Part shown: one piece after another, positions 10,927 through 29,804 of the stretch
Layout of the letters: the number at the start of each line of letters is the position of its first letter
How positions within the stretch are numbered: the first letter of the stretch is position 1
IMG/VR virus record: IMGVR_UViG_3300045988_180316
Strand: one strand, 5' to 3'
Length of the DNA: 37,769 nucleotides
DNA from: a virus
Taxonomy: Duplodnaviria; Heunggongvirae; Uroviricota; Caudoviricetes
Program-made: the position numbers and the translations under genes
The notes under the pieces: model-generated
Seen by the model: the letters and a program-made list of their open reading frames with translations, nothing else
The model's database searches: none
Told to the model about the DNA's origin: nothing

Positions 10927-12570
10927 TCACGTGAATTTATAGAACTTCTTTTTGAACTTATTGTGAAGCTCTGCGACCACGGTGGAGAAGGGTAGCTCGT
11001 CACGACAGAAGTCGTTGAGGGCTTGGTCTATCAAGATCTTGGAGCCTGTATAGAGGTAGTGCTCCTGAGGCTGCCATACCTCGGTGCCGTCTGGCTCCAG
11101 GTGGTCGATGATGCGATAGCGAAGGGAGAGGCGCTTCTTGGGTACCTCTTTGGTGACCATGTGGGTGGAGCCGTCCGGGGCGGTCTCCTCTTGCTGGATG
11201 GTCTCCTTCTCTATCACCGAGTCATCGACCTTGTAGTCTATCACTTGGACGAGGAACTTGTTCTCGTCCTGACCCTCACGGCAGATGATGTCCTCGATGG
11301 ACTGCTGCTGTGATTTCTCCATACCGTCAAAAGGCACGCGCGCACGGCGAGCCTTGACGAGTTTACCGAATCTTTCCATACCGATTTTCTTATATAAGTG
11401 TTTTGAGTTTGCGTGGATGCCCAGTCCTAGGCGAGAGGCTGCCTTGATCTGTATCTGACGGTCTGTGAAGCCCGCCTTGCGTAAGTTGGCAATCTGTTTG
11501 CAGAGGTCGTGCTTGAACCGCTTGCGCAGCAGGGCGTGGTCAGCGTAGATGATCTGACCGCAGAAGTCGATGCCATCGCAGGTGCGGTGGATACCCCAAG
11601 ACTTATTGATGGATAGGTGCCAGTCACGGGCGAGGTGCATCACGGCAAGCTCTGCCATCAGCCTGAGGAACACCTTATCCTCGTGGAGGATGTAGATGTT
11701 GTCCATGAAGCGGTAATAATGGCGAAGACCTTGGCGGCAGAAGCGCTCGAACCTATCGTTGAGCGACTTCACCCCCCCACATAGCAGCTGAGCTTGCTGC
11801 TGAGTGCGACAGGTAACGAGCATGTCGCTCACGTAGCGAGCCTGCCAGTAACGGAACTTGTCGGTGTCTTGGAGAATGTCGAAGCATCGGAGTGCCAGGT
11901 AATCGAAGCGGGCGAGGAAGAGCTGACCCAAGAGTTGGGCGAGCTTGACGCCGAGCACGATGCCTGGATTGAAGCTATCGACCACCTCGTCGATGAAGGC
12001 GAGGAGCTTGCGGTCTTTGATCTTGCGGCGATATTCACTTTTGAGAAGAGCGTGGTCTATGCTCTGAAAATAATGGTGAATATCCATGGGCAAGCAGTAG
12101 AAGGTATCTTGCTGTGGCGAGTTGAAGATGTCTCGCTTGACAAGATTATAGAAATAATGGGTGCCCTTGCCCTTGGAACCAGCCGGACTGTGGCTGTAGA
12201 GTGTCTTGCGAAGGTTATCCTCTACAGGTTGCAGGGCAGCGTGCTGGATGACGTGGTCGATAACGGGCAGCTTGTTGACTTGGCGATGTTTTGGATAGTC
12301 GATATCTTTGGCGACATAGGCTGAGGTATGCCAAGTTTGTTGGGTGTAAGCATCGAGCATGCGTCCGATGTTATGGTCTAGGTTTGCCTCGAATTTTTGG
12401 ACCGCACGGCGAGACATCTTTTGTCGGGCGTAGTCATAGAATGCCCGACGAAAGTTGTCTAGTGTCTCGACCTGTGGCGATATGTTGCCAAACCTTTTCA
12501 TAAGCGGTGTAATGTCTGTGTTGAACGGTGTATAAACTGTGTATAGTCTGAATCGTCTGCTTTTGTACAC
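10927..12570 (-). CDS. DGR-type reverse transcriptase with non-canonical catalytic motif
   Basis: RT motifs in the translation: SPAGSKGKGTHY (compare bRT RPDKGTH), FYCLPMDIHHYFQSIDHALL (motif 3), GIVLGVKLAQLLGQLF (motif 4, the DGR-typical G-x-x-x-S/A-Q) and RFMDN-IYILHEDKVF where Y-x-D-D is expected. Start may be 12570 or 12501. Lies downstream of the template repeat. Confidence 0.8.
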   Translation of the reverse strand: MYKSRRFRLYTVYTPFNTDITPLMKRFGNISPQVETLDNFRRAFYDYARQKMSRRAVQKFEANLDHNIGRMLDAYTQQTWHTSAYVAKDIDYPKHRQVNKLPVIDHVIQHAALQPVEDNLRKTLYSHSPAGSKGKGTHYFYNLVKRDIFNSPQQDTFYCLPMDIHHYFQSIDHALLKSEYRRKIKDRKLLAFIDEVVDSFNPGIVLGVKLAQLLGQLFLARFDYLALRCFDILQDTDKFRYWQARYVSDMLVTCRTQQQAQLLCGGVKSLNDRFERFCRQGLRHYYRFMDNIYILHEDKVFLRLMAELAVMHLARDWHLSINKSWGIHRTCDGIDFCGQIIYADHALLRKRFKHDLCKQIANLRKAGFTDRQIQIKAASRLGLGIHANSKHLYKKIGMERFGKLVKARRARVPFDGMEKSQQQSIEDIICREGQDENKFLVQVIDYKVDDSVIEKETIQQEETAPDGSTHMVTKEVPKKRLSLRYRIIDHLEPDGTEVWQPQEHYLYTGSKILIDQALNDFCRDELPFSTVVAELHNKFKKKFYKFT

Positions 12571-12709
12571 TTGATAACCTTCGACCGGATGACCGTGTTG
12601 TCATCATCTACCAGCTGTCTTATTGATGTGTATGTATCGCCATGGGGCGAGGATTGACCCTGTAATCTCGAAGTGGGAGCAAACGACCCACGAAGAGATA
12701 TGTCTGTAA

Positions 12710-12831
12710 GTTGAGGGCGGCGCCGTAGTTCACATTGGCATTCGAGACAGCATTGTTCACGTTGAGCGTCGAAAGACCGCATTGACCACCATTGTTAGCG
12801 TTAGCACCACGAAGGCAGACACGAAAACCGG
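12710..12831 (-). repeat. DGR template repeat (TR)
   Basis: ~122 bp, near-identical to the target-gene 3' end at 13121-13242. In gene sense it is full of AAC/AAT (Asn) codons. By eye there are 15 mismatches to the variable repeat, 14 of them at TR adenines (sense strand). Confidence 0.8.
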
Positions 12832-12863
12832 CACCTAGGGTCACACCCTGATATCATAACCGC

Positions 12864-12871
12864 CGCAAAGG
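12864..12871 (-). promoter_or_regulatory. -7 promoter element TACCTTTG (minus sense) just upstream of the template repeat
   Basis: Plus-strand caaaggta at 12864-12871, about 33 nt upstream of the TR start in minus sense. Could drive the TR-RT transcript. Confidence 0.35.
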
Positions 12872-13023
12872 TAATAAAAATAATCGGTATGGAAGCATGT
12901 CAAAGAGCTTTTTTGATGTTTTTATTGATATTTTTTTTGTCGCCGACCGCCACAGGCGGTAACTTAAGGCGAGCTACGCTCGCTGGGTGCTTCGGCTTCG
13001 CCGAGGGTGCTCAGGTCTCTTTT

Positions 13024-13061
13024 GCACACCCAGTAAACCGATGCACACCCAGCAAACTGAT
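13024..13061. repeat. Tandem 19-bp direct repeat just downstream of the DGR target gene
   Basis: gcacacccagtaaaccgat (13024-13042) then gcacacccagcaaactgat (13043-13061), 2 mismatches. Lies between the variable and template repeats together with palindromes at 12946-12960 and 12969-12983. Confidence 0.5.
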
Positions 13062-13069
13062 GTAGTCTT

Positions 13070-14542
13070 TTAGGCCGCCTCGTAATACACGGGTTCCACT
13101 GACCACTCGGATGCTGCTTCGCAGAGGGCGGCGCCGCAGTACACATAGGCAAGCGAGACAGCATCGCTCACGTCGCGCGTCGAAAGACCGCATTGACCAC
13201 CAACGTAAGCGCTAGCACCACGAAGGCAGACACGAAAACCGGATGTAGCGCCGCTATTATTCCAGAAATAGCTAGTCCAATAGGTTGACTCGGATGCGCC
13301 CGTGGCGGTCGGGAAGTTCTCCAGATGCTCCATCGAGAGCGTCTTGATAAAGCCTTCGCCCTTGGTCGGCGAGGTGCTGTAAGCCACCATGCCATCGGCG
13401 GAACCTATCGTCCACGTGCCGTAGATGGACGGTGCCACGAGATGGGTCACGGAAGTGTCTTCGTTGCATCGCACCTGCTCGTCATCCATGTGTCGCCACA
13501 ACGAGCCGAAGCCATTTTTGTAGCCGAAGAAGGATGGTATCTTGGCGGTATAGACCACGGTGCCATCGTCTTTTTTGACCTCGTAGCTTGCCTCGCCACA
13601 AGCGTCGCCCAGCTCGATGCCGGCAGACATCGGCACGACAGGGCGATAGCCGTTGTAACCACCCCAATCAGGCATCTGTGTCACGCCAGCTCCGAGACCA
13701 CCCTGGTAGAGACCGTTGGCATCTTTTTGGCTGTTGACGGCATCCTGGTCGTAGTGGGTGCCGAAGATGACCCCGAAGAGCACGGCGATGGCAGAGGTGT
13801 GGCGCATGGTGGTGCAGAGCCAGCCTGTGCCGTTTTTGCGGGCAGCGGCACGCCAGTATTCGGTAGTCTGGTTGGTGGCAGCCTTGCCCAGCATGGTGCG
13901 GTTGGTGTTATCTAACGTTGAGTCGTTGTTGCCGCCTCGGTAGTCTGTGCCCTCGTTGATGTAACTCACCAGCTTGCCTGTGCTGCGCTCTAGCGTGGCG
14001 AAGCCAGCGGCGGAGATGCTGCCAACAGGTATCTTGTAGTTGTACTCGCCTGGTATCGGCGTAGGGCTGACCATCTCGTAATGGAGTCTGCCCACGGTCT
14101 TGATGACCATGTACCACTCCTTGCCCCAGCCCCACTGGTAGTGCCCCTCTGAGCCGTCGAGCTTGGCTGTCTCGCCGGTGGCATACTTGTAATGGTCTTT
14201 GGAGTCGAGCTTGCGACGGGAGTGGTCATTCTTGACTAGGTAGCAGCCCAGACCCAGCTCCGCTGGTAGGGTCTGCAGTAACTCCAGCGAGCCCACATAA
14301 GTGGCGGCCTTAGGGGTTGCATTGTCGAGGTTCCACACTCGACCACACCAAGGATGCTGTCCCATCTGGACGGCGCTTTTGAGCGACATCTGCTCAGACC
14401 TGCCAGACTTTTTGTCGAAGACCTCGACAATCTTGTCTGTGGCGCTCATGTCTGACTGTGGGAGGTCGTCAACCTGTTGACCTCCATCGAAAGCGGCTAT
14501 GATAGCCTTGAGCTTACTCTCTTCTTCTGATGTTAATGCCAT
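13070..14542 (-). CDS. DGR target protein, putative receptor-binding / tail fibre protein with C-terminal variable region
   Basis: ~490 aa. The C-terminal ...GFRVCLRGASAYVGGQCGLSTRDVSDAVSLAYVYCGAAL... is the variable counterpart of the template repeat. Start moved to MALTSEEE (14542) to remove overlap with the upstream gene. Last gene of the tail-fibre operon. Confidence 0.8.
   Translation of the reverse strand: MALTSEEESKLKAIIAAFDGGQQVDDLPQSDMSATDKIVEVFDKKSGRSEQMSLKSAVQMGQHPWCGRVWNLDNATPKAATYVGSLELLQTLPAELGLGCYLVKNDHSRRKLDSKDHYKYATGETAKLDGSEGHYQWGWGKEWYMVIKTVGRLHYEMVSPTPIPGEYNYKIPVGSISAAGFATLERSTGKLVSYINEGTDYRGGNNDSTLDNTNRTMLGKAATNQTTEYWRAAARKNGTGWLCTTMRHTSAIAVLFGVIFGTHYDQDAVNSQKDANGLYQGGLGAGVTQMPDWGGYNGYRPVVPMSAGIELGDACGEASYEVKKDDGTVVYTAKIPSFFGYKNGFGSLWRHMDDEQVRCNEDTSVTHLVAPSIYGTWTIGSADGMVAYSTSPTKGEGFIKTLSMEHLENFPTATGASESTYWTSYFWNNSGATSGFRVCLRGASAYVGGQCGLSTRDVSDAVSLAYVYCGAALCEAASEWSVEPVYYEAA
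13121..13242 (-). repeat. DGR variable repeat (VR) inside the target gene
   Basis: Aligns to the template repeat with an offset of 411 bp. 10 of the 12 differing codons are Asn in the TR. A GC-rich CGGCGCCGCCCTC sits at the 3' end of both repeats (IMH-like). Confidence 0.8.
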
Positions 14543-14564
14543 AATAAAAAATGTATTTAATCGA

Positions 14565-15329
14565 TTAAACAATGCGTAATTTATCACCAACTTTTCTAAG
14601 CTTGCTCGATGCCGACAGGCGAAGGCGAGGCTGGCGTACGGTGATGCTGACCTCTTGCCAGAGCGGTGTGTTGGCGGTGGGGATGACCCAGAACTTGGTG
14701 ATGCCCTCGCCCTTGATGGTGAGGTTGCCGCTTGGGTCTGCCACGAGCGAGTCACCCTCGGCTCGCTGGAAGAGCACGCTCTGTGGGAGGTAGCTCGGCA
14801 GGATCTGCACGGCGATGCGCTGAGCCACCTTGTTGCGCAGGCTTATCTCGGGGAGATAGGCCAGGTTCATGCGAGCTGGCGCGATGAAGCCTGTGGCTAT
14901 CTGAGCGGCGAGACCATCCATCTGCGCTATCTTGGCATCGGCTCGCTTGGATGCCGCGTCTGCCTCTGCAGCCTTGGTCTCTGCCAAGGCTGCCTGTGAT
15001 GCTGCCGCCTCGCCCTGCTCGCCAGCCGCCTTGGCTGCGCTCTGGGCGAGGTTAGCCGCCTTGTTGGCATCGTCGGCCGCACCCTGCGCTCTGACGGTCG
15101 GTGTCTTGTCGAGCCACAAGCGCCACTTGGCGTTGGTATCTGAAGGAGTCGTCGTGTTGCCATCCTCTAGGGAGGCGAAGACTCCTGACGATGTGTGAAC
15201 GATGTCGCCCTCGTCGTAGCCCTTGACGGTCTGGCCATCCTCATCTTGATAGGAGTAGCCCGACTGCCAGGTGCCCTGGTCGGTGAAGGCGACATTGCCC
15301 ACGACAATGATGTTTGTGTTATCTGCCAT
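14565..15329 (-). CDS. Hypothetical tail-fibre-operon protein with Ala-rich coiled coil
   Basis: 254 aa; central Ala/Gln/Glu-rich helical segment; tightly spaced in the operon 13070-20281. Confidence 0.45.
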   Translation of the reverse strand: MADNTNIIVVGNVAFTDQGTWQSGYSYQDEDGQTVKGYDEGDIVHTSSGVFASLEDGNTTTPSDTNAKWRLWLDKTPTVRAQGAADDANKAANLAQSAAKAAGEQGEAAASQAALAETKAAEADAASKRADAKIAQMDGLAAQIATGFIAPARMNLAYLPEISLRNKVAQRIAVQILPSYLPQSVLFQRAEGDSLVADPSGNLTIKGEGITKFWVIPTANTPLWQEVSITVRQPRLRLSASSKLRKVGDKLRIV

Positions 15330-25681: not shown

Positions 25682-25721
25682 GAAAATAAAAATACCTGAT
25701 TGTCATCACGACAACCAGGTA
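25682..25721 (-). terminator. Rho-independent terminator (minus strand) after the three-gene small-protein operon
   Basis: 11-bp stem with one mismatch (25693-25703 with 25711-25721), 7-nt loop, followed in minus sense by TTTTTATTTTC. Confidence 0.45.
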
Positions 25722-26134: not shown

Positions 26135-26400
26135 GCCTCACCTCCTTTCGCCTCCAGGGCAATGTTGATGGTCTTGAAGAGCTTGCTCATGTGGTCGAAG
26201 TTATTGAGCATGAGCAGCACCCTGTCGGCACCGCCGAGGTCTTCGACGCAGTTGGTCACCACCTCGTCGGAGATGAGTACCTTTTTGACTTGCTCAAGGT
26301 ACTCGATGAAGTAGTTGAGCTGGTTGACATCCATCATATCTACGAGCGCATTCCAGACCTCTGCTGTCATGTGTATGTTTGTTGCGTTGTTTGTGTTCAT
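26131..26400 (-). CDS. Hypothetical small protein, second gene of the small operon
   Basis: 89 aa; overlaps both neighbours by 4 nt. Confidence 0.45.
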   Translation of the reverse strand: MNTNNATNIHMTAEVWNALVDMMDVNQLNYFIEYLEQVKKVLISDEVVTNCVEDLGGADRVLLMLNNFDHMSKLFKTINIALEAKGGEA

Positions 26401-26660
26401 GCTGCAATTCCTCCCATCAGATAACCACCAGCAATCATCACTACCGCGAAGCAGGCTATGCCCACCATGGTCAATGCCACCTCGCCATAAGTAACCGTCT
26501 CTTCGCAGAGGTAGCTGAAGGTCTCGCTCCTGGTAGCCATGAGGCGCTTAGCCTCACGCTTGATTGCACACTTGAGGGATTTCATTCCCTCGTTCACATT
26601 CACGTGGATGCCGGCAGGCTTAGCCTGCATCGCATCATTTAATAAAATAGAATTCTGCAT
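26397..26660 (-). CDS. Small tail-anchored membrane protein, first gene of the small operon
   Basis: 87 aa with C-terminal hydrophobic helix (VALTMVGIACFAVVMIAGGYLMGGIAA). Its ATG is 4 nt downstream of the third copy of a repeated 16-nt leader element. Confidence 0.45.
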   Translation of the reverse strand: MQNSILLNDAMQAKPAGIHVNVNEGMKSLKCAIKREAKRLMATRSETFSYLCEETVTYGEVALTMVGIACFAVVMIAGGYLMGGIAA

Positions 26661-26664
26661 ATTG

Positions 26665-26931
26665 CATCATCTGTTAAGCATTAGCAGCCAACTTGATTTC
26701 GTGAGAAAAGGGTGGCGGCTGCATTCCCCGTTGCTTAACAGATGATGACTTATCCGAGAGGACTAATCAAAAATCTACGGTTCATGCAGCCGCCATATTG
26801 GTACACCTTTTTCCCGTTGCCGGGAAAATGATACTCTTGGGCATAAAAAAAGCCTGCGGCTGAGAAGCCATAGGCGAAACGGTCGCCCTGCCGGATAGAT
26901 TACTATCATCTGTTAAGCGTTGGCAAAGGTA
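26665..26931 (-). promoter_or_regulatory. Structured leader / operator region with three copies of a 14-16 nt element, plus promoter
   Basis: catcatctgttaagca at 26665-26680, its exact reverse complement at 26732-26747, and a direct copy atcatctgttaagcg at 26905-26919. A second inverted pair ggcggctgcat (26714-26724) / atgcagccgcc (26784-94) interleaves with the first. -7 motif TACCTTTG at 26924-26931 with a TTTG 20 nt upstream. Confidence 0.5.
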
Positions 26932-26948
26932 AGAAGAAAATCCGGAAC

Positions 26949-26985
26949 CGCCAAAAAAAAAGCGAGAAATTTTCATTCCTCGCTC
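26949..26985 (-). terminator. Rho-independent terminator (minus strand) after the secreted-protein gene
   Basis: Minus sense reads gagcgag-gaatgaaaattt-ctcgct followed by nine T. Confidence 0.45.
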
Positions 26986-27017: not shown

Positions 27018-27416
27018 TTATTGCTCATCTTTGGTAATTAACCCTGCTCGAATCTCATCATCGTTCTTCACTCTCTTCACCAGAACATAGTGGAGAACAG
27101 CCCTGCCGGCACCCTCTGTTATATAATATGTCTTGTCAAGTTTCCAACCTTTCTTAGCCATATAATTCACGGCTGCCATGACGGTATTGAACTTGATCTG
27201 TTTGCCATCCTCACCATATAAGCTCTCGAAAGAACCTCCACCATTGGAGACTGCACCCATATCAAGCATGACCTTCACTTTGCCGACGCCCCAAAAGTTA
27301 TATGCCTTGAGGTCGCAATAAACCGGATACTTACCATCCTCAGACTGGATGGTGCTCTGCGCTCTAGCGCCAATAGCCATAAAAATGATGGCCATCATAA
27401 CTAAAAACCTTTTCAT
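27018..27416 (-). CDS. Secreted hypothetical protein (signal peptide)
   Basis: 132 aa. N-terminus MKRFLVMMAIIFMAIGARAQ is a typical signal peptide. Lower GC than the phage core. Own promoter motif TATTTTTG at 27444-27451. Confidence 0.55.
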   Translation of the reverse strand: MKRFLVMMAIIFMAIGARAQSTIQSEDGKYPVYCDLKAYNFWGVGKVKVMLDMGAVSNGGGSFESLYGEDGKQIKFNTVMAAVNYMAKKGWKLDKTYYITEGAGRAVLHYVLVKRVKNDDEIRAGLITKDEQ

Positions 27417-27542
27417 TTTTTAATGTTTAAATTTAAATCGATACAAAAATAACAATAAAATATTAGTTATTCTAACCATTTTATCTGTATTTATATAAAA
27501 TCTGCTGGAAATATGTTGTAGAGCATAAAAACGAGGGACTTT

Positions 27543-27581
27543 GGGAAGAAAAAAGCCCCGATGCATCACGCACCGGGGCTT
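27543..27581 (-). terminator. Rho-independent terminator (minus strand) after hicB
   Basis: 8-bp stem aagccccg (27553-27560) with cggggctt (27574-27581), followed in minus sense by TTTTTTCTTCCC. Confidence 0.45.
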
Positions 27582-27647
27582 CTAAAGCGATCTTTTAATT
27601 TTTAATTGCATGAAGTACAATCGGCATGAAGCCGATCGAACTGTTCT

Positions 27648-28073
27648 TTAAACATACTGTAGAACTGGTCTATCTATCAAGAGTCCAGTATCTATATCTC
27701 CTTTAACTTTTGCTATACCTTGTCTAATTTTCTCCAAGCTTTTGCCTTGTGGTACCTTGATGCCTGCTGCATATTGTCGAAGCAACGAGGCGTTCATGCC
27801 GATATACTTGGCGAAGGCTGAGATACTTAGAGGATAGTAGTTGAAAAATGCCCCAACATCGAAGACGAAGTGAAACTCCAAGTCTGGGTACTCCTTACCT
27901 TCCTCCTCATAGAATTCTCTCATTTCCTTATCTGCAATGAGGAAATCTTCCATAGCAGCCTTTGCGGTCTTGCCGTCACCAATAAGGCCAAACGTCAAGT
28001 CATCAGTCCCAGTCATGAAGCAAGAATATAAATCCTTGCCAGACTCCACTACAACAGTAACTTTTCTTGCCAT
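27648..28073 (-). CDS. hicB: HicB-family antitoxin with C-terminal HTH domain
   Basis: 141 aa. N-terminal ~90 aa has the HicB-like pattern (KVTVVVESGKDLYSCF...GDGKTAKAAMEDF). C-terminal segment YPLSISAFAKYIGMNASLLRQYAAGIKVP is HTH-like. Downstream of hicA. Confidence 0.6.
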   Translation of the reverse strand: MARKVTVVVESGKDLYSCFMTGTDDLTFGLIGDGKTAKAAMEDFLIADKEMREFYEEEGKEYPDLEFHFVFDVGAFFNYYPLSISAFAKYIGMNASLLRQYAAGIKVPQGKSLEKIRQGIAKVKGDIDTGLLIDRPVLQYV

Positions 28074-28149
28074 ATCTTTCTATATATAAAGTTCATAATC
28101 AAAAGTGTCCTTCTTGCATACCAAGAAAATCATGGAAGAAGAACCTGGG

Positions 28150-28332
28150 CTAAAGCCCAAGTTCTTGATAGATAGATTTCAGAGTGCGAATATTCACCTC
28201 TTCAGTTCCATGCCGAGGAACGGCAGTGCTCTTCCCATTGGCTGGGTTGAACCAAATGTCGTGTCGGCCTCCATGACGAAGTAGAAAGCATCCCGCTTTC
28301 TTTAACTTCCGATACAGTTCACTGTATTTCAT
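28150..28332 (-). CDS. hicA: HicA-family toxin (mRNA interferase)
   Basis: 60 aa from MKYSELYRKLKKAGCFLLRHGGRHDIWFNPANGKSTAVPRHGTEEV..., the HicA pattern. Start moved from the ORF-track 28407 to 28332 because a TACCTTTG -7 motif lies at 28377-28384 inside the longer ORF. Confidence 0.65.
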   Translation of the reverse strand: MKYSELYRKLKKAGCFLLRHGGRHDIWFNPANGKSTAVPRHGTEEVNIRTLKSIYQELGL

Positions 28333-28376
28333 AATCTCAGTATGTTTAAAGAACACTTTGTCCTTATTGGACGATG

Positions 28377-28384
28377 CAAAGGTA
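28377..28384 (-). promoter_or_regulatory. -7 promoter element TACCTTTG (minus sense) for hicAB
   Basis: Plus-strand gatgcaaaggta; 45 nt upstream of the hicA ATG at 28332. Confidence 0.4.
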
Positions 28385-28520
28385 ACAATAAAGTTATAAA
28401 TAACCAAATATTTCGGTAACTATTTTGTTATATTACCTAAGATTTAACATTTATACATAAAGATAAGCGATGTCCCTACCTCTTTTAGGCTCTTGCCAGA
28501 CCGCTTTCGCCGCTAGGCGA

Positions 28521-28560
28521 AAAATTTTCAGAAAAATAGGGAAGGTCGAAAAACCTTCCC
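28521..28560 (-). terminator. Rho-independent terminator (minus strand) after radC
   Basis: Perfect 8-bp stem gggaaggt (28539-28546) with accttccc (28553-28560), loop cgaaaa, followed in minus sense by TATTTTTCTGAAAATTTTT. Confidence 0.5.
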
Positions 28561-28576
28561 TTGTACCTATTATATA

Positions 28577-29263
28577 TTATAGCTTTCCCTTGTCGTGGTA
28601 GCTGTAGAAGCCATCCTCGGCTAAGATGATGTGGTCCATCAAGAAGAGTCTCATCACCTCGCACGCCTTGGCTATCTTCTGCGTGAGCATATCGTCCGCC
28701 TTGCTCGGCTGCGTGCTGTTCGATGGGTGGTTGTGCGCCACGGCGATGATGGTTGCGTTGTTGAGCACGGCTTCTTTCATTATCAGCCTTATGTCCACCG
28801 CTGTGTCGGTGATGCCTCCCTCGCTGAGCTTCACACTCTTTATCAGTCTGAAGTTTTGGTTCATCAGCACTACCCAAAAGCCCTCTGTCTCATTGCTTCC
28901 CATCATCGGGCGAAGATAGTTGTAGAGTGCTAGGCTGCTGCCTAGGTCGGTATTACGTGCCACCTTTTCCATTTGGTAGCGTCTGCCTAGCTCGATGGCT
29001 GCCTGTAGGGCTATCGCCTTGCAGTCGCCGATGCCTGGTACCACCTCTAGGTCTTCGATTCTCGCCTTGCCGATATTGCGAAGTGAGTTGTCCATGATGT
29101 TATAAATCTGTCGTGCCTGCTCTTGGCTGTCCTTGGTACCTGCCCCTCTGTTGATTACCAAAGAAATCAAGTCAACGTTGGTTAGGGTGTCGAAGCCTTG
29201 GTTATAGGCTCTGTACTGCGGTCTCTCCTCCATACAAAGGTCGTTATAATTTTGTCGTATCAT
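28577..29263 (-). CDS. radC: RadC-like JAB-domain protein
   Basis: 228 aa with the JAB/MPN metal-binding motif HNHPSNSTQPSKAD and the helix-hairpin-helix-like N-terminus typical of RadC (UPF0758). Confidence 0.75.
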   Translation of the reverse strand: MIRQNYNDLCMEERPQYRAYNQGFDTLTNVDLISLVINRGAGTKDSQEQARQIYNIMDNSLRNIGKARIEDLEVVPGIGDCKAIALQAAIELGRRYQMEKVARNTDLGSSLALYNYLRPMMGSNETEGFWVVLMNQNFRLIKSVKLSEGGITDTAVDIRLIMKEAVLNNATIIAVAHNHPSNSTQPSKADDMLTQKIAKACEVMRLFLMDHIILAEDGFYSYHDKGKL

Positions 29264-29279
29264 AGCTATATTGTTTTAA

Positions 29280-29804
29280 TTAGTTATACATTCTCTTGGT
29301 TCTCGCTAGGAACATCGCTCCCATCACTTGTGCGCCACATTCTGCTAGCTCGTTGGCGAACTCTCGGGCGGTCGCACCGCTTGTCACCACATCGTCGAAG
29401 ATGATGACTTTCTTTCCGTTGAAATACTCTCTATCGAGTGCCACTCTGTAGTCGAAGCTCTCGCACACTCTGTCGGCGCTGAAGTGCTTTGCCGTGCGCT
29501 CGCCATAGATGGAAATGTGCTCGCTTCCGTTCTGTACCTTTGCGCCTTGGCTCACCTTTTGGGCGAAGCGAGAAAAGCGCTTGTTGTACTTCTTGGAGTT
29601 GGCTGCTGGTGCGCATACCATCACGAAGTCGCTGGCTTTGTCGCCATAGGTGTTGACGAAAGAGCTGACCACCATATCGGCTGCGGCGTCTGTCGCCCAC
29701 TGCTTGCCATCCTTGAAAGCAAAGATGAAGTTTCTCACTTGCTCGGCTTGCGCTGAGCGGTCGAAACGCTTGGAGTTGTACTCGTAATAATTGAAAGTTT
29801 TCAT
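29280..29804 (-). CDS. ComF-like phosphoribosyltransferase-domain protein, no N-terminal zinc finger
   Basis: 174 aa with the PRPP-binding motif VIIFDDVVTSGATA. Start is 16 nt upstream of radC, so probably co-transcribed. Family called from motif only. Confidence 0.55.
   Translation of the reverse strand: MKTFNYYEYNSKRFDRSAQAEQVRNFIFAFKDGKQWATDAAADMVVSSFVNTYGDKASDFVMVCAPAANSKKYNKRFSRFAQKVSQGAKVQNGSEHISIYGERTAKHFSADRVCESFDYRVALDREYFNGKKVIIFDDVVTSGATAREFANELAECGAQVMGAMFLARTKRMYN

Follow-up and report, generated by a model that had tools for sequence, protein, structure and literature searches.

We describe here the leader of a small-protein operon in a 37,769-nucleotide (nt) sequence of a tailed phage (IMG/VR record IMGVR_UViG_3300045988_180316; "the window" denotes this whole stretch). 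The leader is likely a three-part antisense-RNA cassette that represses translation of the first gene of the operon, encoding an 87-amino-acid (aa) protein (p87), through allele-specific recognition of an immunity- or incompatibility-like kind and in a layout resembling those of phages P1 and P4. A function of the cassette at the level of RNA is well supported. The region is described 5' to 3' on the minus strand, where element A (26918-26905) precedes element B (26747-26732) and element C (26680-26665).

Three pairing elements and their concerted variation

26905-26918, minus strand: element A (GCUUAACAGAUGAU), a 5'-terminal target or decoy complementary to B over 14 nt
26732-26747, minus strand: element B (CAUCAUCUGUUAAGCA), the antisense segment
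26665-26680, minus strand: element C (UGCUUAACAGAUGAUG), the mRNA target, complementary to B over 16 nt

The 14-mer ATCATCTGTTAAGC is present in three exact copies, at 26666-26679 (+), 26733-26746 (-) and 26905-26918 (+), and no further copy was found in the 37.8-kb window even with two mismatches allowed. The expected count is 0.32, and three copies were reached in 0 of 100 dinucleotide shuffles. Perfect complementarity covers 16 nt between 26665-26680 and 26732-26747 and 14 nt between 26733-26746 and 26905-26918, bearing out the proposal of a first-pass annotation, made from the sequence alone, that the middle element can pair with either of the other two. Also as it had stated, element C ends 4 nt before the ATG of the 87-aa open reading frame (ORF) at 26660, and a second inverted pair is real, with TGGCGGCTGCAT at 26713-26724 matching 26784-26795 perfectly over 12 base pairs (bp). 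This second pair forms the outer stem of a folded unit around B, the predicted B RNA; element A lies 110 nt upstream of that unit and element C 30 nt downstream of it. Within the unit, a fourth, partial copy of the target pairs with B as the 5' strand of a helix termed P2b. Other target sites within the phage amount only to sporadic 8-mers. The target core recurs once over 8 nt (GCTTAACA), in the loop of a hairpin at ~25754; other loci with the same allele lack this copy, so it is probably there by chance.

To compare this leader with its relatives, viral loci were gathered through the 87-aa protein (the closest 80), 10 loci were added from genomes, and more than 120 viral contigs were found with a DNA pattern for the 12-bp stem. 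The pooled set holds 151 distinct leader sequences from Segatella/Prevotella copri phages and Segatella genomes; 70 leaders were aligned (alignment A1), and covariation in the B RNA was assessed on 62 distinct units. The relatives in named genomes all belong to the Segatella/Prevotella copri group, and S. copri OF03-3 (QSCI01000001.1, locus L087) and MSK.21.95 (L090) are cultured lysogens with the cassette. The INPHARED phage collection contributed a single relative, MT835559, which is unannotated.

The positions of the elements are constant and their sequence is phage-specific, with alleles such as GCTTAACAGATGAT, GGTTACAAGATGAT, GTCTACAAGATGAT, GCTTAAAAGACGAT, GGTAATAAGAAGAT and GCTTATAACACGAT; 39 distinct B cores were counted at 14 nt and 33 at 11 nt. 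In 131 of 150 leaders, A and C are identical over the common 11-nt core and are the reverse complement of B, compared with a mean of 8.4 and a maximum of 19 when B was shuffled among loci (2000 shuffles). B pairs with C over at least 14 contiguous nt in 145 of the 151 leaders and with A over at least 11 in 143. The homologous leaders thus keep the repeats and show compensatory changes, as the first-pass annotation had expected of a functional element. Four single differences between B and C were seen, three of which are compatible with G·U pairing (L043, L072 and L196; not L004), and two of these three may be one event.

The elements are at the same time the most variable part of the leader. 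Nucleotide diversity (pi) is 0.21-0.23 for the elements and 0.28-0.29 for their seed half, against 0.09 for the promoter, 0.07 for the body of the A RNA and 0.04-0.09 for the arms of the B RNA, an excess of about threefold. As many as six alleles occur on backbones that are 100% identical, and the allele of the window is found with 87-aa proteins that share just 54-100% identity. Since a pairing constraint alone predicts elements that are more conserved than their flanks, hypervariability combined with concerted change suggests that the elements are a specificity determinant under diversifying selection. A hypervariable, allele-specific pairing sequence in turn suggests that recognition takes place in trans, in the manner of P1 c4 and P4 CI.

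The energetics of pairing favor the cognate combinations. Cognate duplexes average -24.6 kcal/mol for B:C and -21.8 kcal/mol for B:A, and the corresponding non-cognate means are -13.7 and -11.2 kcal/mol, a gap of about 11; just 1.5% of the non-cognate pairs fall short of the cognate value by 3 kcal/mol or less. For the window, the calculated net interaction in trans after opening costs is -10.2 kcal/mol for the B RNA with C and -8.2 kcal/mol for the B RNA with the A RNA.

Predicted A and B RNAs and the operon behind them

26710-26795, minus strand: predicted B RNA of ~86 nt, a structured antisense RNA (fold, covariation, covariance model R1)
26795-26784 / 26724-26713, minus strand: P1 stem, 12 bp, UGGCGGCUGCAU / AUGCAGCCGCCA
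26780-26777 / 26731-26728, minus strand: helix P2, CCGU/ACGG
26776-26773 / 26743-26740, minus strand: helix P2b, AGAU/AUCU
Within the B RNA, minus strand: P3, its inner hairpin
26713-26710, minus strand: 3' tail A-CCC

The fold of segment 26795-26710 has an energy of -39.7 kcal/mol (z = -6.2). Among the 62 distinct units, pairing reaches 95.8%, compared with 26-56% in controls with slid partners; compensatory changes were seen in five pairs, and the observed values were reached by none of 500 shuffles. Covariance model R1 scores 94.4 bits on the window. The P1 stem varies from C-G to U-A, with U·G and G·U pairs as well, in one sublineage, and P3 varies from UCC/GGA to CCC/GGG and ACCU/AGGU. 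The most informative helix is P2b, which joins a short 5' strand to the constant half of B: it takes the forms AAGAU/AUCUU (23 units), AAGAU/GUCUU (16) and AGAU/AUCU (12), and more rarely AAAGAU/AUCUUU (3), AAGAA/UUCUU (3) and AACAU/GUGUU (1). In the unit with this last form (L151), A and C bear the matching change, so that four sites moved together. Cells of the B RNA that depart from Watson-Crick pairing comprise 147 G·U and 24 A·C, and the fold is therefore maintained only on the gene strand.

The 5' part of B is sequestered in P2b, and its 3' part forms an unpaired internal loop of 8 nt, GUUAAGCA (26739-26732), here called the seed loop, with an opening energy of 0.2 kcal/mol. As modelled, this arrangement would correspond to the usual design of trans-acting antisense RNAs, in which an exposed loop nucleates pairing and strand displacement follows.

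The ends of the B RNA resemble a tRNA acceptor, with U at -1, G at +1, a discriminator A and then CC. The terminal motif in the window is AUAU↓GGCGGCUGCAU…AUGCAGCCGCC-A-CCC, where the arrow marks the U-G junction; it is invariant in the 62 units, with the ending -ACCA in one subfamily. An RNase P cut would be predicted between U26795 and G26794, and it is from this terminal motif by itself that we infer release of the B RNA by RNase P. Direct reading of the aligned leaders revealed no promoter consensus between the terminator T1 (below) and the B unit, and the B RNA would therefore have to derive from read-through transcripts.

The upstream part of the leader consists of the following features.

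26924-26955, minus strand: Bacteroidota-type promoter, -33 TTTG at 26955-26952, 20-nt spacer, -7 TACCTTTG at 26931-26924 (TTTG-N20-TAccTTTG)
26845-26919, minus strand: predicted A RNA of ~75 nt, with the 5' seed A, HP1, S1, the possible S2 and the terminator T1
26907-26894, minus strand: hairpin HP1 (GAUAG-uaau-CUAUC), compensatory changes in 4 of 5 pairs
26893-26891 / 26882-26880, minus strand: S1, a 3-bp helix (CGG/CCG, CAG/CUG, CUG/CAG, CGU/ACG; 100% paired)
26887-26883 / 26877-26873, minus strand: S2, a possible pseudoknot arm (GGCGA/UCGCC)
26875-26845, minus strand: terminator T1, hairpin 26875-26852 and U7 at 26851-26845, the U-run invariant among relatives
26808-26828, minus strand: conserved spacer hairpin, UUUUCCCG-gcaa-CGGGAAAA, between the A RNA and the B RNA (columns ~140-200 of alignment A1)
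26950-26985, minus strand: intrinsic terminator of the upstream 132-aa gene, hairpin and U9 (terminator scan)

The promoter agrees with the Bacteroidota consensus TAnnTTTG / TTTG and is almost invariant across the 70 aligned leaders. Its position predicts a transcription start within ~3 nt of the 5' end of A (~26919-26917), in keeping with the earlier placement of this element near the start of the transcript. Judged from its sequence, the terminator of the 132-aa gene should shield the cassette from upstream transcription. The last 3 nt of A fall in the HP1 stem and the rest of A is a 5'-terminal single strand. S2 overlaps the foot of T1 by three bases and its columns hardly vary; S2 and T1 could be alternatives in a terminator/antiterminator pair. 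The spacer hairpin shows compensatory variants (GCUG/CAGC, CCUCC/GGAGG), occurs in one to three tandem copies in relatives, and is not a terminator on either strand. The first-pass annotation was right about the layout of the repeats and had overlooked both the T1 hairpin with its U7 tract between the first two elements and the ~86-nt fold that holds the second, half of which is paired.

Two ORFs of 64 and 44 aa overlap the leader. Relatives show 1-nt indels and compensatory changes in alignments A1 and A5, and coding potential of the leader was rejected on these grounds. One public contig (L214, 1409-1603) has the 64-aa ORF (26782-26976, minus strand) annotated as a gene. The leader was also considered as a tRNA or transfer-messenger RNA and rejected, as ARAGORN gave no match there and detected only a tRNA-Met at 224-299 in the window.

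Element C leads directly into the operon.

26397-26660, minus strand: p87, 87 aa, the first ORF, with a C-terminal transmembrane helix
25811-26400, minus strand: ORFs of 89 and 107 aa, each overlapping its upstream neighbor by 4 nt (ATGA)
25683-25720, minus strand: operon-closing terminator-like hairpin after the 107-aa gene, 11 bp and a U-rich tail

An ORF of the p87 family follows the leader in 151 of 151 cases, 40-53 nt past the B unit, and is the only gene invariably linked to the cassette; the genes behind it vary between phages. Members of the family are 80-87 aa long, with a conserved N-terminal part and the C-terminal transmembrane helix. The family comprises at least 1488 clusters at E ≤ 0.001 among 8000 candidates scored, all of them unannotated. 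Some gene calls lengthen p87 to 125 aa by starting inside the leader. The 87-, 89- and 107-aa proteins have no family match in Pfam, PHROGs, PADLOC or NCBIfam, and homologue searches for the operon proteins returned only "hypothetical" proteins. An AlphaFold model of the 107-aa protein (predicted local distance difference test, pLDDT, 74) gave Foldseek matches that were weak throughout (E > 0.1) and with few exceptions to winged-helix domains. A promoter-like box, TAtcTTTG, follows the closing hairpin and precedes a 353-aa gene.

Proposed mechanism and competing explanations

In the mechanism we propose, transcription from the constitutive-type promoter would begin at A, and most transcripts would stop at T1 to yield the ~75-nt A RNA with its 5' seed. 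Transcripts that read through would contain the ~86-nt, tRNA-acceptor-like B unit, which RNase P could release at the U-G junction, allowing the B RNA to accumulate. The open 8-nt loop of B would nucleate on C, and pairing would extend to 16 bp with displacement of P2b. The resulting B:C duplex would span -20 to -5 before the p87 AUG and block initiation of translation, and the small genes behind p87 may be silenced too, through translational coupling or polarity. Having the same sequence as C, A may be a second target that reinforces repression or termination, as P4 seqA does, or a decoy that, like IsrK, lifts repression by titrating B. The B of each phage would match only its own A and C, giving many non-cross-reacting classes among related phages.

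On a broader interpretation, which we put forward tentatively and with somewhat less than even confidence, the two undescribed small RNAs (sRNAs) form a programmable RNA-RNA immunity or incompatibility system, in which B is an antisense repressor mimicking an RNase P substrate, A is a 5'-seeded decoy or co-target, and dozens of orthogonal specificities are under diversifying selection. If true, this would be the first RNA immunity of the C4/CI type outside Proteobacteria, either extremely diverged from the P1 and P4 RNAs or converged on an RNase P-dependent design. The two RNA families are absent from Rfam, come from a new host phylum and have an unusually rich allelic diversity, and the papers searched gave no account of an RNA of this kind from a Bacteroidota phage. 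Segatella copri is a dominant human gut bacterium, and the logic of classic antisense-RNA immunity (P1 c4, P4 CI, Gifsy IsrK) would here operate in a very abundant prophage family of this host. To our knowledge, Bacteroidota have no Hfq and largely lack Shine-Dalgarno-led initiation, and little has been learned about their phage regulation and sRNA mechanisms. If confirmed, the cassette would add two new RNA families and a natural substrate of RNase P that is probably new in Bacteroidota. Its sequence would let phages in metagenomes be assigned to immunity or incompatibility groups, and its single scaffold would supply more than 30 natural orthogonal 14-nt antisense/target pairs as genetic parts for Bacteroidales. 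Four pairing sites that evolve in concert on otherwise identical backbones also make a clean case for the diversification of RNA-RNA specificity.

Several observations weigh against the proposal of an antisense-RNA cassette of P1/P4 type. The cassette sits among structural genes and morons, with no evident lysogeny module around it, and no antirepressor or replication gene was recognised in the operon, where the 107-aa protein is weakly winged-helix-like. The Rfam models C4, c4-a1b1 and isrK have no match at E ≤ 10 on the 451 nt or the 103 nt searched, and model R1 has no match to P1 c4 or P4 CI. Since the covariance models match in neither direction, a homology to the known systems is conjectural, and convergence on RNase P could account for the similar termini. 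About 13% of leaders are mixed, with an A or C that does not match B (among them L002, L004, L020, L022, L052, L071, L082, L126, L127, L147, L161 and L189; in L002, A, B and C all differ). The relatives are close and the compensatory changes in the P1 helix come from one sublineage, so the number of independent covariation events is small. Finally, pseudoknot-free cofolding predicts no B:C duplex while the scaffold is intact; opening and duplex energies were used above because RNAcofold cannot place intermolecular pairs inside a closed scaffold.

In one further leader, L048, both A and the promoter are gone and the 87-aa gene is cut down to 62 aa. The mixed leaders and L048 could be escape mutants, decaying prophages or assembly chimeras. 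In five other loci (L005, L006, L032, L034 and L049), a 10-nt tandem repeat (TTCCGATTGA) of two to four copies lies upstream of the leader, at ~-450 to -395 before the ATG; it is not present in the window.

The first-pass annotation had favored a translational switch or attenuator. The RNA-level role that it implied stands, given the covariation, the strand-specific G·U pairs and the position of C against the start codon, and its self-contained cis picture is probably too narrow. In such a purely cis-acting leader switch, B would pair with A, leaving the start free, or with C, burying it, within one read-through mRNA and with no role in trans or between phages. The three elements do share one transcription unit, and folding of the full leader with enforced states gave nearly isoenergetic values of -92.0 (A:B), -90.8 (B:C) and -90.2 kcal/mol (B unit); these three alternative states within 2 kcal/mol are what the earlier reading anticipated, and the centroid of the free fold includes the A:B duplex. 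We nevertheless regard a cis switch as unlikely. It predicts elements more conserved than their flanks, and these were found to be ~3 times more variable, with up to six alleles on identical backbones. A conserved terminator parts A from B, and the compact unit that holds B has an end resembling that of RNase P substrates and a seed loop that always stays open, both typical of antisense RNAs that act in trans. No element that senses a ligand or signal is evident. The absence of a recognisable riboswitch class, remarked on earlier, agrees with the lack of a relevant Rfam match and with the pairing segments being the most variable positions.

About equally improbable is a type I toxin-antitoxin-like or "kil-control" module, in which p87 would be toxic and the B RNA its antitoxin, serving prophage stabilisation or abortive infection and not immunity. 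The short length of p87 (80-87 aa in the family), its C-terminal transmembrane helix, its standing as the sole gene always linked to the RNAs and the antisense site over the translation start would all fit such a module, and the first c4-controlled gene of P1 is likewise annotated as a small harmful protein, Icd. Allelic diversification would also be expected for addiction modules that avoid cross-neutralisation. However, type I toxins are typically shorter than p87, which includes a conserved soluble domain of ~55 aa and has no match in the family databases named above. Unlike at classical type I loci, the antisense RNA and its target also share a strand and a transcript.

It is very improbable that a protein whose specificity differs between phages binds the three copies as DNA (as operators, or as sites of an arm-type or iteron-like kind), the alternative offered by the first-pass annotation in the form of three operators. 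Three identical 14-bp sites near a promoter and a gene start might suggest it, and concerted variation could follow a co-evolving protein. The element is not palindromic, however, and operator copies within one phage normally differ, whereas these are identical over 14-16 bp. The fourth, partial copy in the 5' strand of P2b covaries to pair with B within the RNA, the helices covary with G·U pairs on one strand only, three of the four single B/C differences tolerate G·U (two of them maybe one event), and the cassette has no linked variable gene for a DNA-binding protein.

Invertible promoters are common in Bacteroidales and the 14-16-bp inverted repeats flank segments of 158 bp and 51 bp, but an invertible segment of inverton or shufflon type with A/B or B/C as recombination sites can practically be dismissed: T1 is in gene sense in 147 of 151 leaders and inverted in 0, the 70 aligned leaders all share one collinear order, the promoter is upstream of A and in neither of the flanked segments, and no invertase is adjacent, the only recombinase found in the window being the integrase at 416-1579.

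Genomic setting and comparison with known antisense-RNA systems

The window is the left part of a prophage, and every gene from 37766 down to 1637 is on the minus strand. A tRNA-Met (CAT) at 224-299 adjoins a tyrosine integrase gene at 416-1579 on the plus strand of the window, a junction that probably represents the prophage end and attachment site. The cassette region is preceded on its 5' side by a ClpP-like prohead protease and a weak match to the large terminase, and followed on its 3' side by an amidase and a minor-tail/tape-measure-like protein. A complete diversity-generating retroelement is present at 10927-14755 on the minus strand. Its repeats are 119 nt long and 89% identical, with mismatches almost only at template adenines, and the variable repeat lies at the 3' end of a 561-aa ORF (13070-14755). 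The gene content of the accessory island next to the leader varies among related phages.

27018-29804, minus strand: accessory-gene island directly 5' of the leader (HicA toxin, HicB-like, RadC/JAB-like, ComF-like phosphoribosyltransferase, 132-aa protein)
12553-12654, minus strand: RT-17 RNA (RF03020), part of the retroelement
10927-12570, minus strand: reverse transcriptase-like ORF, part of the retroelement
12713-12831: template repeat of the retroelement
13124-13242: variable repeat of the retroelement

By analogy, we treat the locus as one that would work like a C4/CI cassette, and not as a demonstrated member of those Rfam families. At gathering thresholds, Rfam reported no C4 and no relevant family in the window. 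The matches at E ≤ 10 (STnc240, L20 leader, mir-731 and others) were rejected as chance matches of a terminator-like or long-hairpin kind. The same models recover their own systems: C4 scores 68.8 bits on P1 and 74.9 bits on P4, isrK scores 60.8 bits on P4, and c4-a1b1 scores 51 bits on P1. Hartmann et al. reportedly established in 1995 that c4 is an RNase P substrate, and Citron and Schuster are said to have found in 1990 that differences in specificity define P1 and P7 as heteroimmune. C4 RNA is listed among RNase P substrates (PMC2190699), and the listing of c4 and c4-a1b1 by Weinberg et al. (2010, PMC2864571) is confined to Proteobacteria and phages of Proteobacteria.

The terminal helix of the B RNA shares the motif U↓GG.GG…CC.CC-A-CC with P1 c4. 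Every conserved position of the C4 consensus, uuuuAu↓GGcgGg…cCcgCC-a-CC, is matched by the B RNA (AUAU↓GGCGGC…GCCGCC-A-CCC). In both RNAs a single-stranded antisense stretch lies just 5' of the 3' arm, a' in c4 and the seed loop here. In contrast to the two adjacent inner hairpins of the C4 family, the interior of the B RNA is one nested hairpin (P2, P2b, P3), and where P1 c4 uses two separate segments of 7-8 nt (a' and b'), B is one contiguous segment of 14-16 nt, half masked by a helix.

The annotated P1 record gives the order promoter P1c4, a1, b1, c4 RNA (77 nt), a2, b2, icd (73 aa) and ant. As in this immI region of P1 and P7 (P51 promoter), the targets flank the antisense gene, a small first ORF (icd there, p87 here) starts just after the downstream target, and translationally coupled genes follow. 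An antirepressor gene, ant, is found downstream in P1 and none was recognised in our operon, and alleles are far more numerous here (33-39 in one phage family).

In type I toxin-antitoxin loci such as tisB/istR-1 and zor/orz, the start of a small membrane protein is likewise covered by an antisense stretch of 14-20 nt, often on prophages. The present cassette differs in its same-strand, same-transcript antisense RNA, its second target copy, its tRNA-like processing signal and its larger protein.

The immunity region of satellite phage P4 comprises the PLE promoter, a short RNA with seqA (isrK family, RF01394), the CI RNA (C4 family, RF01695) and seqC. By Rfam, P4 carries an isrK-type RNA of two hairpins and an intrinsic terminator, and its C4-family CI RNA starts 108 nt later; CI pairs with seqA upstream and seqC downstream (PMC4825925). 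Both loci have on one strand, in our case by prediction, a promoter, a terminated target-bearing RNA, a long-stem antisense RNA and a downstream target in front of the first translated genes. In both, one antisense segment faces two direct-repeat targets, one upstream and one downstream, a terminator stands between the upstream target and the antisense RNA, and the antisense RNA of our locus, like that of P4, would come from the transcript of its own target. They differ in host (Proteobacteria there, Bacteroidota here), in the upstream target, which is in a hairpin loop in P4 and at the 5' RNA end here, and in the antisense RNA, with two side-by-side hairpins there and one nested inner hairpin in the B RNA. 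The reported outcome in P4 is premature transcription termination of replication genes, whereas occlusion of the start codon is what our data most directly predict.

Judged by sequence only, the A RNA resembles isrK and c4-a1b1 (RF01394/RF03163) in being short and structured, in starting at the operon promoter and in stopping at an intrinsic terminator ahead of the antisense RNA; the targets of isrK and c4-a1b1 are in hairpin loops, whereas A would form a 5'-terminal single strand. In Gifsy-1, the short terminated IsrK opens the buried start site of a read-through mRNA in trans, and a processed RNA lies downstream (PMC4825925). The locus described here has no match to the isrK model, and its host and genes differ from those of Gifsy-1 in Salmonella. 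The predicted arrangement is nonetheless that of IsrK/STnc1160/orf45-anrP, with a short terminated sRNA and a read-through mRNA from one promoter and a processed RNA past the terminator. In both, the short RNA shares its sequence logic with the mRNA leader, and IsrK thus offers a precedent for A as a decoy or activator.

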